64,000 nucleotides of DNA from a phage, in the sequence record PZ445517.1; one strand, given 5' to 3'. Made by a program: the position numbers and the translations under genes. Each line of letters opens with the position of its first letter. Within the stretch, counting starts at the first letter, position 1. Shown here piece after piece: positions 11,391 through 48,063 of the stretch. The notes below the pieces were generated by a model, which was given only the letters and a program-made list of their open reading frames with translations, was not told where the DNA came from and did no database searches.

Positions 11391-12593
11391 TTATTTTGTA
11401 ATAATGTCAAACTGTTCTTTAAAGCAGAAGCTTGAATCTTGATGCTGATACAAAAATTCATATGCTTTTTCTCGCTCACGGTCATAAAGAGCTCGGTCAG
11501 ATGACAGTTCTTTAATACGTTCAAATGTTGATTCCATATCATTTTCATCAAACCAAATGATACCGCTATCATGCGAGGTCAAAGGAGTATTATCAACACG
11601 GAATTTTAAATTTTCGCCAGTAGATTTCCAAAATACCGGAATTGTTCCACATGCACCAAGCTCGAGATGAGTATATTCTAAAGAACGTTGTAGATATTTT
11701 TTGTCCAACTTACTCAGCTGATAACCAAATCCGGATTTACTCATGCGTTCAAGCATTTCGCTATTTACATAACGGTCAAGAATTTGCGTTGGCAAATTAG
11801 GAGCAATTTTAATTTGGTCTACTTGATGAAGACGATAATACTCGTATGGAATTCCTTTTTCTTTAATAGGAATGAACGCTGGAGAACGTTCCAGACCTTC
11901 CATAATAGTACTTAGTCCTGCAGGTTTAAGATGTTTTTCGTGAAAATCAAACATCTGATAAAAACCTTTCCATGTAGTCGTACGACCAATCCAACGGTTG
12001 ATATTCATGTTAATTTCAGAAACATCTTTCCAGTAGGTTGACCGAACCTTCGCAATATCCATAGGAGGCTGAAAGTTATATACTGTCGGTGCTTCTTCAA
12101 TATCATCAAACAGAGAAACTGTTTCTGGATACCATTCTTTCATCAGAACTTTATTAAAATCGCCATTATCAGAATGACTAAAAATAACATCAGCTCGACG
12201 AACAGTTTCTTCTAATCCCAAATTTCGGCGCAAAGAAAGAGAAGAATGGTCATGTTGATAAACTACAACACGAACAGAAGGTTTAATGTTATCAATAATT
12301 TTTTTATAGTTATTAATAGTGTCTTCTTCAACCGAAGTAGCAGGAACTGAATTGATAATTAGAATATCACAATCATTTACCAGCTTAAGTGTTTTATCAT
12401 ATTCTTTTGCCAATAAAACCGGAATTGAAAATGATTTATAATCATGCGCGCAATTACGAGTAAATGATTTATCTTTAGCATAAACCAAAGTTACTTCATG
12501 ACCATTTTTAATAAACCAATCACGTTGCTCAAGAGAAAATTTAGTTACACCACAACCTTCAAGACCTCGAGCCATAAAAATACATACTTTCAT
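11391..12593 (-). CDS. a-gt: DNA alpha-glucosyltransferase
   Basis: 400 aa, T4 AGT length; N-terminus MKVCIFMARGLEGCGVTKFSLEQRDWFIKNGHEV resembles remembered T4 AGT. Confidence 0.9.
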   Translation of the reverse strand: MKVCIFMARGLEGCGVTKFSLEQRDWFIKNGHEVTLVYAKDKSFTRNCAHDYKSFSIPVLLAKEYDKTLKLVNDCDILIINSVPATSVEEDTINNYKKIIDNIKPSVRVVVYQHDHSSLSLRRNLGLEETVRRADVIFSHSDNGDFNKVLMKEWYPETVSLFDDIEEAPTVYNFQPPMDIAKVRSTYWKDVSEINMNINRWIGRTTTWKGFYQMFDFHEKHLKPAGLSTIMEGLERSPAFIPIKEKGIPYEYYRLHQVDQIKIAPNLPTQILDRYVNSEMLERMSKSGFGYQLSKLDKKYLQRSLEYTHLELGACGTIPVFWKSTGENLKFRVDNTPLTSHDSGIIWFDENDMESTFERIKELSSDRALYDREREKAYEFLYQHQDSSFCFKEQFDIITK

Positions 12594-43925: not shown

Positions 43926-44058
43926 TTTGTGAAAAATTTTTTAAAAAGTTTTGGGGAATTCTAGGGCAGGGAGGGCAATTAAAGGATAGGATAATATATT
44001 ATAAAGGATAGAAACTAAATGATGCCTAGAGAGGCCCGGAAAGGCCTAAATACCAAAA

Positions 44059-44082
44059 AGCCCCGACCAAAAGGTTGGGGCT
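44059..44082 (-). terminator. GC hairpin (AGCCCC...GGGGCU)
   Basis: agccccgaccaaaaggttggggct after stop of 44090.. ORF; related copy at 44615-44638. Confidence 0.45.
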
Positions 44083-44089
44083 AAGAATG

Positions 44090-44564
44090 TTATTTGATTT
44101 GTTTAGCAGACCAAATGCGGTCTTTAATAATTTTTTGGATGTCTTCAACATACTCAAGAGAGTGAGCATGTGGGTTATCTTTGAAACTATAAGCACGAGC
44201 TAGCTTTTGGCCTTCAGTTTTGATTACTAAAAGCTCTTTAAGGATAGCTTCATATTTGGAGATAATTCCTTTAACAATATTTTTTTTCTTGCGTAGCTTT
44301 AGGATCTGCTTTAGGAGCAGGTTTACCTGAAGCCTTTGCAAAAGCAGCGCCAGTAGCAACTAAACTTTTCCAGGCCATACTAACAGCATTCCCCGTAAAT
44401 CCTTCTGCTTTCATATCACGAGCAAATTGGAATCGTGATTCATCGGAAGCATCTTTATAGGAATATTTACCCGCGGCAATGGCAGCTTTTGCAACAGCTT
44501 GAATTTCAGTGCTAGATGCTTCATTTAACACCGCTTCATTTAAAAATTGAGCATATGATTTCAT
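44090..44564 (-). pseudogene. late gene apparently split at an A8 homopolymer (ORF1 44271..44564, ORF2 44090..44359)
   Basis: Minus-strand GAAAAAAAATATTGTTAA: frame 1 ends ...QEKKYC*, frame 2 continues KKKNIVKGIISKYEAIL...; removing one A fuses them into about 157 aa. Confidence 0.45.
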
Positions 44565-44600
44565 CTTATTTCCTGTTTTAATTCGTGGTTTTAATATACT

Positions 44601-44608
44601 TATTTATA
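44601..44608 (-). promoter_or_regulatory. late promoter TATAAATA (minus strand)
   Basis: Plus tatttata about 37 nt upstream of ATG 44564. Confidence 0.4.
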
Positions 44609-44614
44609 CTAAAA

Positions 44615-44638
44615 AGCCCCAACCTTTCGGCTGGGGCT
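44615..44638 (-). terminator. GC hairpin closing the tRNA/small RNA transcription unit
   Basis: agccccaacctttcggctggggct. Confidence 0.45.
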
Positions 44639-44640
44639 AA

Positions 44641-44950
44641 GCCTTGCGGCAACCTTGTCGGGGTTCCACCTGCTAAGGCAAGTGTTTGTACGAAACGCCG
44701 GGATTCGAACCCGGTTATTAAGCAGTTGACGCTACTCAATATTTTTAAAAGGCCATATCTCGACCATATCCGAACGTTCCGTCAAAAACGCTACTCGGCT
44801 TATGGCAAAGATATTTCCTCGAATCGATAATTCGGTGCGCCGTTTCTGCTGTGATATAAGGGGGCATTAGCAGATCGTAAAGATTTGTTAATGCCAGTCC
44901 TTAAACAGGGAACATCAGTCCGACGACTTGCCGGTAGCGACCCGGCTTCT
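44641..44950 (-). ncRNA. possible small stable RNA(s) downstream of tRNA-Arg (analogous to T4 RNAs C/D)
   Basis: About 300 nt without ORF between tRNA-Arg and a hairpin; contains tRNA-like T-arm CCGGGTTCGAATCCCGG and several stem-loops; T4 has species C/D RNAs here. Confidence 0.3.
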
Positions 44951-45293: not shown

Positions 45294-45779
45294 TTATTTT
45301 ATGTAATATTTATTTAAAAACTTTCTAGCTTGAGTATGGCTAACATTTATAGCGTTTGCATAATTTTTAATAAAACCTCGTTCATCCATATTAAAATTTT
45401 CTAATATTTTTAATCGTCTAATTATCTCATCTTGGCTTAAGGTACTTGCATTATTTTTAGAAATTTTTTCTAAAGACTGCACTGAGTGTTTTCGACCATT
45501 AAAATTAAAATTTTTAGGTTTTGGAGGAAATCTATCATTTAGTCTCGCATCTTTTGTATTTTGATTATTAGTTGCGCAATATATGTTATTTAATGAGTAT
45601 GGTCCTTTATCACCAAAACGACACATACAGTATTCATGACCCTTTCTTCCACGCTTATCATAATTTCCTGTTGATTTCCACCAATTTAACCACTCATCAA
45701 AAGTTAAATTCCATTCAATGTTTCTACGTATAGCAGAATTCCGCTGAGAAATATATTTTGCATAATCTTCTTTCATCAC
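45294..45779 (-). CDS. hypothetical protein inside tRNA cluster with Cys/His-rich nuclease-like segment and C-terminal HTH (possible mobile-element endonuclease)
   Basis: 161 aa; RRNIEWNLTFDEWLNWW...GHEYCMCRFGDKGPYSLNNIYCATNNQN; C-terminal VSHTQARKFLNKY resembles the HTH tail of the HNH protein at 46172..46804. Confidence 0.5.
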   Translation of the reverse strand: MMKEDYAKYISQRNSAIRRNIEWNLTFDEWLNWWKSTGNYDKRGRKGHEYCMCRFGDKGPYSLNNIYCATNNQNTKDARLNDRFPPKPKNFNFNGRKHSVQSLEKISKNNASTLSQDEIIRRLKILENFNMDERGFIKNYANAINVSHTQARKFLNKYYIK

Positions 45780-46171: not shown

Positions 46172-46804
46172 TTATTTATTACGTGAAAAAGATTGTTCTA
46201 TCAATTCTGGACACTTTCGTTCTATCCATTTTCTAGCTTTTTGTGGGCTTATACCTATTATTTTAGCAGCTTTACTAACCCATCCAAATTTAGAATAATC
46301 GATTTTAACTAATTCTTCGTAAATTTCATCAGTTAAAATCTTTTCATTAATATTTACCAGTAAATGATATAATTTATTATCATTAGCAATTTTAATGAAT
46401 CTTTTATAGTTTCCGCCTTTACTTAAACCTAATGAAGTAATTGCAGATGATATAGTAGCCGAATTTAATAATGCGTTTAAAATTTCTTCATCACTAACAT
46501 TATAACGCTTTTTATTATTTTTAATATTTTTACCAGCAAAAGTATCAGTTTGCGAATGGCAATTTGGACATAATAATCTTAAATTTGATTTAAGATGATT
46601 TTTATTATTTCCATCAATATGGTCTAATTGCAGAACAATATGCTTATTTTGCCATTTTGAAATTTTACAAATTGCACACTCATATGGAAAAATATTTTCT
46701 TTTATTATTTTGTCTTTCAGCTTTCCTGTACTAAAATTTGGATGTTTTCCTTCAAAAATTTCAGCTAATTTAGTATCCATAATATAATTCCCAATTATTA
46801 ACAA
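46172..46804 (-). CDS. HNH endonuclease with C-terminal DNA-binding (HTH) domain, directly upstream of tRNA cluster
   Basis: LDHIDGNNKNHLKSNLRLLCPNCH canonical HNH motif preceded by CxxC; 210 aa. Confidence 0.75.
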   Translation of the reverse strand: MLIIGNYIMDTKLAEIFEGKHPNFSTGKLKDKIIKENIFPYECAICKISKWQNKHIVLQLDHIDGNNKNHLKSNLRLLCPNCHSQTDTFAGKNIKNNKKRYNVSDEEILNALLNSATISSAITSLGLSKGGNYKRFIKIANDNKLYHLLVNINEKILTDEIYEELVKIDYSKFGWVSKAAKIIGISPQKARKWIERKCPELIEQSFSRNK

Positions 46805-47838: not shown

Positions 47839-48063
47839 TTATTCAACACCAGCGGCTTTCAAAAGTTTTTTAAGATTGGCAACACCTTGAGCAGAAAATG
47901 TGACCTTGCCACCTTTTTCACTGATAGAACCAACCAATTTAGCAAGTTTATCATTAGGAATTTTTTTAAAATCAGCCAATGTTCCATCAAAGGTTTTTGA
48001 AACAAAAGGCAGTTCATCTTCATGTCTTTTAGCTTCTGCAATAAATTCTTGATATGTTTTCAT
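47839..48063 (-). CDS. internal protein with capsid-targeting leader (ipI-locus cassette)
   Basis: ATG 48061-48063; MKTYQEFIAEAKRHEDE... CTS; 74 aa; track N-terminal extension is promoter DNA. Confidence 0.7.
   Translation of the reverse strand: MKTYQEFIAEAKRHEDELPFVSKTFDGTLADFKKIPNDKLAKLVGSISEKGGKVTFSAQGVANLKKLLKAAGVE

Follow-up and report, generated by a model that had tools for sequence, protein, structure and literature searches.

A recurrent A8 frameshift allele at a length-variable homopolymer in a probable internal head protein gene of a Tequatrovirus

The A8 homopolymer that interrupts an accessory late gene of a Tequatrovirus is probably a natural +1 frameshift allele, arisen from A7 by the gain of one base at a hypermutable, contingency-locus-like tract, in a gene whose product is likely an internal head protein. 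The gene is frameshifted relative to its homologs, the change has occurred repeatedly and recently among related phages, and the length variation is specific to this run. The DNA analysed (64 kb, hereafter the window) matched the Tequatrovirus Escherichia phage T4_ev240 (LR597657.1) at 100% identity, and all positions are given in the coordinates of the window.

The interrupted gene and its intact homologs

The locus lies on the minus strand, where it directly follows the tRNA cluster and the homologs of rnaD/rnaC, and the features described in this section are all on that strand. ORF1 (44271–44564) consists of 97 codons from an ATG at 44564 to the ending ...QEKKYC* with a TAA at 44273–44271, and is annotated in LR597657 as VUF55572.1. 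Direct reading of the minus strand found GAAAAAAAATATTGTTAA at the end of ORF1, where the A8 run (44280–44287; T8 on the plus strand), a putatively hypermutable tract, occupies the codons GAA AAA AAA and is followed two codons later by the TAA. The predicted product of ORF1, composed of a propeptide, an N-domain, a linker and a KYC tail, corresponds to the truncated form made from the A8 allele. An overlapping ORF in the +1 frame (ORF2, 44090–44359) reads ...KKKNIVKGIISKYEAILKELL... to a stop at 44090, and its portion from the run onward (44090–44281) comprises 63 codons (NIVKGIISKYEAILKELL...WSAKQIK) and a TAA (44092–44090), the silent C-terminal domain segment. The first-pass annotation had described this ending of ORF1 and a +1 frame continuing to 44090, and both were found where it had placed them; the L-rich N-terminal extension of ORF2, which it had regarded as noise, is ORF1 read out of frame.

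A stop-free stretch of 63 codons has a chance probability of ~0.013–0.02 for the local composition. More decisive than this value, the stretch equals the C-terminal 63 residues of intact 157-aa homologs and is therefore not a product of chance, in keeping with the earlier view that both halves are genuine protein. Independent translation of ORF2 was considered and is unlikely, given that the 63-codon segment contains no Met and that the sole upstream in-frame start is a TTG deep within ORF1.

At the level of sequence motifs, a T4-type late promoter, TATAAATA, is located at 44601–44608, as had been proposed from the window alone; it lies 36 nt upstream of the ATG, and an independent annotation of phage SA21RB assigns the same motif to a T4 late promoter. 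A Shine-Dalgarno sequence, AGGA (44571–44574), lies 6 nt before the ATG. Further upstream, a terminator scan placed an intrinsic-terminator hairpin, AGCCCCAGCCGAAAGGTTGGGGC, with a T-run at 44611–44638, where it would end the tRNA/rnaC-rnaD unit. This hairpin is the left copy of a duplicated pair, the nearly identical right copy of which, AGCCCCAACCTTTTGGTCGGGGC with its T-run, forms a terminator downstream of the gene (44055–44082). Terminators are annotated at the equivalent position in R5505, G28 and SA21RB.

Relatives with A7, among them R5505, RB18, SA21RB and bov9_1, contain a single CDS of 474 nt and 157 aa. The run reads GAAAAAAAT (A7) in R5505 and GAGAAAAAT (AGA5) in UFV-AREG1, both of which encode a continuous protein of 157 aa whose last 63 residues are the +1 frame of the window. 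Because the A7 and AGA5 relatives encode this continuous protein, the A8 of the window is a one-A insertion, and thus a +1 frameshift allele; the prediction that loss of one A would yield a protein of about 157 aa agrees exactly with these relatives. The protein database holds a cluster of 216 members of 157 aa, and more distant relatives (154–157 aa, 70–83% identity) are also continuous through ...AAQEKNI.... Overall, in-frame A7 accounts for ~90% of homologs, and a pattern scan of IMG/VR that tolerated differences in run length returned three loci, all with A7, a number too small to serve as a census.

Run-length alleles, their recurrence and their age

The A8 run with the same premature stop is present in at least six other GenBank phages (teqhal, EC128, G28, ECO07P3, bov10K1 and FJ1), in Logan assemblies, and in metagenome contig ERZ27280638, a 174-kb contig from a lineage only 68% identical at the protein level. 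The opposite change, A6 (–1), was found in at least three GenBank phages (SfPhi01, 235Ecol030PP and vB_Eco_F26), in metagenome contig ERZ27280864 and in Logan assembly ERR2241956. Given that the allele census was drawn from the best 60 rows of each search, the frequency of length variants, ~7%, is approximate. The first-pass annotation had suggested comparing homologs for A7 and A8, and had named homologs ending at the ORF1 stop with no continuing frame as evidence against an interrupted gene; A7 proved to be the majority state and A8 a recurrent one, and the homologs that do end at this stop all keep the continuing frame. Annotation pipelines report the gene as a 'hypothetical protein' of 97, 111 or 157 aa, or miss it.

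A different lesion occurs in Pu-Krd-SF4, in which A7 is followed by an inserted C (GAAAAAAACTATT; L021 430–450, compared with L022 from Pu-Krd-SF3). This insertion is not a simple slippage product and could be due to misincorporation plus slippage, to independent selection for truncation, or to error.

At the protein level, truncations of both the A6 and the A8 type were found in each of the three main lineages of the gene. In a neighbour-joining (NJ) tree of 26 sequences, built with the run masked, the alleles were scattered, and Fitch parsimony required at least 10 changes, with their direction unpolarised.

The frameshifted copies are young. Phages bov10K1 (A8) and bov9_1 (A7), isolates of separate samples, have this base as their sole difference across 50,000 bases; Pu-Krd-SF4 differs from Pu-Krd-SF3 in 870 nt only at this site; and over 490 nt a single substitution separates the metagenomic A8 contig from ESCO10 (A7). 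The complete 63-codon C-frame is retained in 12 of 12 frameshifted copies, with no stops or further indels. As every frameshifted copy keeps this frame intact and near-identical A7 siblings exist, the frameshift events are recent. Variable sites in the silent frame of these copies are distributed 7:4:35 over the three codon positions, a pattern from which it follows that the divergence accumulated while the C-segment was still translated, and the few changes private to frameshifted copies are all synonymous. An old pseudogene was rejected on account of the lack of a second lesion in any frameshifted copy together with the concentration of substitutions at third positions. No old frameshifted clade with relaxed constraint was present among the 12 copies. 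The absence of secondary decay implies that frameshifted lineages do not persist but either revert or die out, and this absence, like that of old frameshifted clades, is compatible with reversion and also with lineage loss. That A7 remains in the large majority, though itself highly mutable, implies selection for the intact gene in nature.

The A8 run is the longest homopolymer of the window. Four runs of at least 7 are present where a first-order Markov model predicts ~64, a depletion of ~16-fold, and the same model predicts ~114 runs of 6 where 64 are present, ~2-fold fewer than expected. This scarcity of long runs is consistent with selection against slippery tracts. Since the focal run is the longest in 64 kb and runs of at least 7 are depleted, a slippage hotspot is expected here. 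Across the whole window it is also the only long run at which a 1-base deletion fuses two open frames (315 + 195 nt); none of the other long runs of the window splits an ORF.

An A7 run in the alpha-glucosyltransferase gene a-gt (12299–12305, minus strand) served as a control for sequencing noise. No length variant was found at this run in 193 verified GenBank records: of 235 records, 179 were exact matches, and 14 of 14 sampled non-identical records differed by substitutions only. The focal run showed ~12 length variants in ~174 records (Fisher p = 1e-4), a contrast that is perhaps inflated, as submitters may correct frameshifts in a named gene more than in a hypothetical one. Homopolymers of agt in T2 are demonstrated contingency loci of a 2025 preprint, so mutations of the a-gt run must occur as well and be purged from deposited genomes.

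An alternative in which the phage carries A7 and an intact 157-aa gene, with the extra A present only in the deposited record as a sequencing or assembly error, is improbable. On several platforms, assemblies err most often by miscalling a homopolymer by one base, and error would also be expected to yield sibling genomes set apart by one base of a homopolymer, like those observed here. However, A8 recurs in Logan assemblies and metagenome contigs as well as in the at least six other GenBank phages, which come from unrelated laboratories; 9 contigs encode the very same 97-aa protein; A6 alleles exist too; and among the runs of the window only the focal one interrupts an ORF. Metagenome contigs assembled from short reads (Megahit-style) carry A8 or A6 as their consensus. 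Because the a-gt A7 run is without length variants, sequencing noise is unlikely as a general cause. Taken together, these comparisons argue against error as the general explanation, although they do not of themselves clear the single record of T4_ev240.

The encoded protein and the mechanism of run-length change

The 157-aa form matched phrog_2280 over its full length in PHROGs, a family labelled there as of unknown function. A Pfam search gave sub-threshold noise only, and the AlphaFold model (pLDDT 73), when searched against the PDB and BFVD, returned only its own family and generic helical matches. The N-terminus is more informative. Codons 1–10 (44535–44564, minus strand) encode MKSYAQFLNE, a predicted propeptide resembling a T4 capsid-targeting sequence (CTS) with an L-x-E prohead-protease site, and a second LNE site occurs at codons 13–15. 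MKSYAQFLNE has Y4, F7, L8 and E10 where IPIII, MKTYQEFIAE, has Y4, F7, I8 and E10; in the T4 CTS, positions 4 and 7 have been mapped to targeting and positions 8 and 10 to processing by gp21, with cleavage after L/I-x-E (PMC9026906). The same signature opens the window's own ip genes (MKTYQEFIAE, MKTFKEFTS and MKTFKEFAT) and is conserved across homologs of the focal protein, which is basic (pI ~9.5). In the AlphaFold model, residues 1–15 form a disordered propeptide, residues 18–75 a confident helical N-domain, residues 76–87 a low-confidence Pro/Lys linker and residues 88–154 a helical hairpin C-domain.

Given the CTS match, the shared ip signature, the late-promoter motif, the pI of ~9.5, the disorder of the first 15 residues and a run lesion in a second internal-protein gene, ip8, the intact protein is most likely an internal head protein that would be trimmed by the prohead protease after L-x-E and injected with the DNA. 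Internal proteins are known as a diverse group with a part in anti-restriction, and growth on laboratory hosts does not require them (PMC3012670, PMC9026906). In common with T4-type internal head proteins, the focal protein is small and basic, is preceded by a late-promoter motif and begins with an MK(T/S)(Y/F)x(E/Q)F..(L/I)xE propeptide, and its gene is patchy among close relatives, with cassette-like gain and loss. It differs from them in that its mature part lacks sequence or fold similarity to IPI*, T2 ipIV and ip8, and in that the gene lies between rnaC and e.8, outside the canonical ip cluster.

T2 'ipIV', also 474 nt and annotated as an internal virion protein, was considered as a homolog and rejected (BLASTP E = 3). 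This gene (L030 441–914; 157 aa, CTS MKTYQEFITE) is located just downstream of gene e, a position which indicates that CTS-bearing genes are scattered through the e-tRNA region and not confined to the classical ip cluster.

The ip8 gene of the window, itself CTS-bearing, contains one of the three other A7 runs (47961–47967, minus strand; codons ...DFKKIP...). In phage ZCEC14 (L029 301–370) this run is A6 and the gene is frameshifted and unannotated, while the other 16 records keep A7. Run lesions may in this way be general for dispensable injected proteins.

The A-run falls in codons 93–95, at the start of the C-domain. Because of this position at the modelled domain boundary, either A8 or A6 would cleanly remove the C-domain and leave a product consisting of the N-domain only. 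More distant family members keep the N-domain and have a different C-terminal region, which supports a modular family; the truncated product may accordingly still be functional.

In the proposed mechanism, slippage of the DNA polymerase during replication would add or remove one A at high frequency. The A8 allele would reach its stop two codons on and give a precursor of 97 aa, which processing would convert to an N-domain-only protein of ~82–87 aa, and the A6 allele would give the same N-domain with a 17-residue junk tail. In both alleles the C-domain would be silent save for trace-level slippage. Such off alleles would arise repeatedly, would be tolerated since phages can do without internal-protein genes on many hosts, and would be short-lived, either reverting or being lost. 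The first-pass annotation had left the choice between a frameshift mutation and slippage by RNA polymerase or the ribosome; the frameshift mutation, at a slippage site for DNA polymerase, is upheld by the intact A7 homologs and the recurrence, whereas slippage in transcription or translation is disfavoured by the A7 majority, the variable run length and the lack of a stimulator.

Homopolymers of at least 6 in T2, T4 and T6 undergo reversible ±1 frameshifts at ~3e-4 per tract, and these frameshifts revert 1e3–1e4 times faster than point mutants, which led the authors to term them contingency loci (bioRxiv 10.1101/2025.10.21.683753). Hypermutability and reversibility would be expected at the focal tract from the comparative data and from these other T-even tracts. 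The tracts described by Gomez, Barrick and Waters, in agt of T2 and rIIA of T4, resemble the focal site in being poly-A runs of at least 6 inside an ORF, in the same virus group, in showing ±1 replication-slippage frameshifts in both directions, and in lying within non-essential genes linked to phage–host conflict. Two features of a contingency locus were found here, namely a repeat of at least 6 inside a gene (A8, or A7 in the intact allele) and, by comparison of sequences, elevated ±1 change at the tract (at least 10 changes among 26 sequences; ~12 of 174 records versus 0 of 193). The differences are that the T-even study rests on measured rates and selected mutants and the present one on comparison of consensus alleles fixed in natural isolates and metagenomes, that the focal gene is missing from T2 and T4 and so fell outside that study, and that the off state here need not be a null, as it yields a shortened N-domain protein which may still function.

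Programmed recoding, in which RNA-polymerase slippage or +1 ribosomal frameshifting on A AAA AAA would produce a set ratio of the 97-aa and 157-aa forms from an A8 template, is very improbable. It would account for the perfect preservation of ORF2 in every frameshifted copy, which is also explained by the recent origin of the frameshifts. A slip of tRNA-Lys in the +1 direction from A3–A5 to A4–A6 would restore exactly ...QEKNIVK..., A8 is the lower limit of detectable slippage by E. coli RNA polymerase (PMC6260861), and 8A is apparently used by some bacterial IS elements (PMC1088944). Against this, ~90% of homologs have the in-frame A7, with the run even broken (AGA5) in UFV-AREG1, and the lengths observed (A6, A7, A8, A7C and AGA5) are the opposite of the conservation expected of a recoding site. 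To return to frame, the mRNA of an A8 allele would also have to lose 1 nt, and on poly(A) the reporters for E. coli RNA polymerase, an enzyme state other than that of the T4-modified late polymerase, gave no rescue of the deletion type and no detectable slippage at lengths under A8 (PMC6260861); the usual slippage threshold is 9A/9T (PMC1088944). No ribosomal frameshift stimulator was found at A8, with no SD-like element upstream and no slow or stop codon in the A-site (AAA, UAU), and the downstream 90 nt showed no significant structure relative to shuffles (z = –1.25). Plain decay of the gene is unlikely, though less so than recoding. Here a dispensable gene would have taken, in A8, the first hit of an irreversible pseudogenisation, perhaps fixed during laboratory propagation, with no switching and no adaptive role. 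The dispensability of T4 IP genes on standard hosts (PMC9026906), the lack of this gene in T4 and T2, the non-slippage insertion at the same spot in Pu-Krd-SF4, the similarly broken ip8 of ZCEC14 and the preponderance of laboratory-propagated isolates among carriers would all fit. Nevertheless, none of the 12 frameshifted copies has a second lesion and no old clade is under relaxed constraint, A7 stays the large majority despite high mutability, implying selection for the intact gene, and uncultured metagenome contigs with an A8 or A6 consensus demonstrate that the alleles are not only laboratory artefacts. The mutational mechanism is common to decay and to the preferred reading of a hypermutable, contingency-locus-like tract, which differ only on reversibility and selection.

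A stronger form of the preferred reading would have the A-run act as a reversible length switch, favoured by selection and placed exactly where the two domains of an injected internal protein meet; it is put forward tentatively as a possibility on the unlikely side. Lysates would then mix two-domain and N-domain-only forms, hedging between hosts in which the C-domain neutralises a defence and hosts in which it is sensed or costly. A related case is found in the poly-G receptor-binding protein genes of Campylobacter Fletchervirus, where homopolymer length variation in a virion gene likewise gives subpopulations with different protein forms; there the tract is G of 7–11 in a receptor-binding protein with a known phenotype, and here it is A of 6–8 in a putative injected protein. 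The A9 of Thermus dnaX, the T9 of Shigella mxiE, the 9A/8A fusions of IS elements and the 7U of Ebola GP share with the focal site an A/T run at a junction of overlapping frames, where a one-base change fuses the frames, and passage of Ebola virus likewise switches the genomic length of the GP editing site between 7 and 8. Genes that use transcriptional slippage conserve both their split arrangement and the length of the run, and their two mRNAs are produced by the polymerase. At the focal site, by contrast, a presumably ancestral in-frame A7 is the majority state, length varies in the DNA itself, and deletion of an A from A8 by the host polymerase is not expected.

If the preferred reading is true, it provides population-level evidence for the recent laboratory claim of homopolymer contingency loci in T-even phages, with one tract present in three length states, each as consensus, across many independent isolates and uncultured contigs, in a gene that bears the putative hallmark of proteins injected against host defences. 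The near-isogenic natural pairs, bov9_1/bov10K1 and Pu-Krd-SF3/SF4, could be used to find the role of the C-terminal domain, and ±1 homopolymer differences between phage isolates should not automatically be dismissed as sequencing error. Were the adaptive switch also true, no earlier contingency locus would have acted on an anti-defence candidate delivered by the virion, or have been documented in natural phage populations as alternative alleles that are fixed.

The gene cassette and its surroundings

The late promoter and the gene together form a cassette of ~520 bp (44085–44605, minus strand) that is missing from T4 and T2. In a BLAST of the window against T4, the match stops at 44606 and restarts at 44084, with both segments covering the same hairpin of T4; the annotations of T4 and T2 show no gene at this position, where each has one hairpin. 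The arrangement looks like gain or loss of the cassette by recombination between the repeated regulatory hairpins.

The focal locus is structurally plastic beyond the A-run. In protein P0014, the final ~30 residues of the focal C-domain are fused to an N-terminus resembling Trna.3, which suggests a product of deletion or recombination, and the linker of protein P0035 carries KADP duplicated in frame.

Two features of the neighbouring region were also observed. The interval 44640–44950 (minus strand), between tRNA-Arg and the late promoter, has ~89% identity to T4 rnaD/rnaC (stable RNA species 2 and 1) and carries no annotation in the source record. Within or beside the tRNA cluster, the ORFs at 45294–45779 and 46172–46804 (both minus strand) are only 'hypothetical' in LR597657; the latter carries an HNH-type motif (HIDGNNKNH...CPNCH), and both are likely homing-endonuclease insertions, at positions unlike that of segB in T4.
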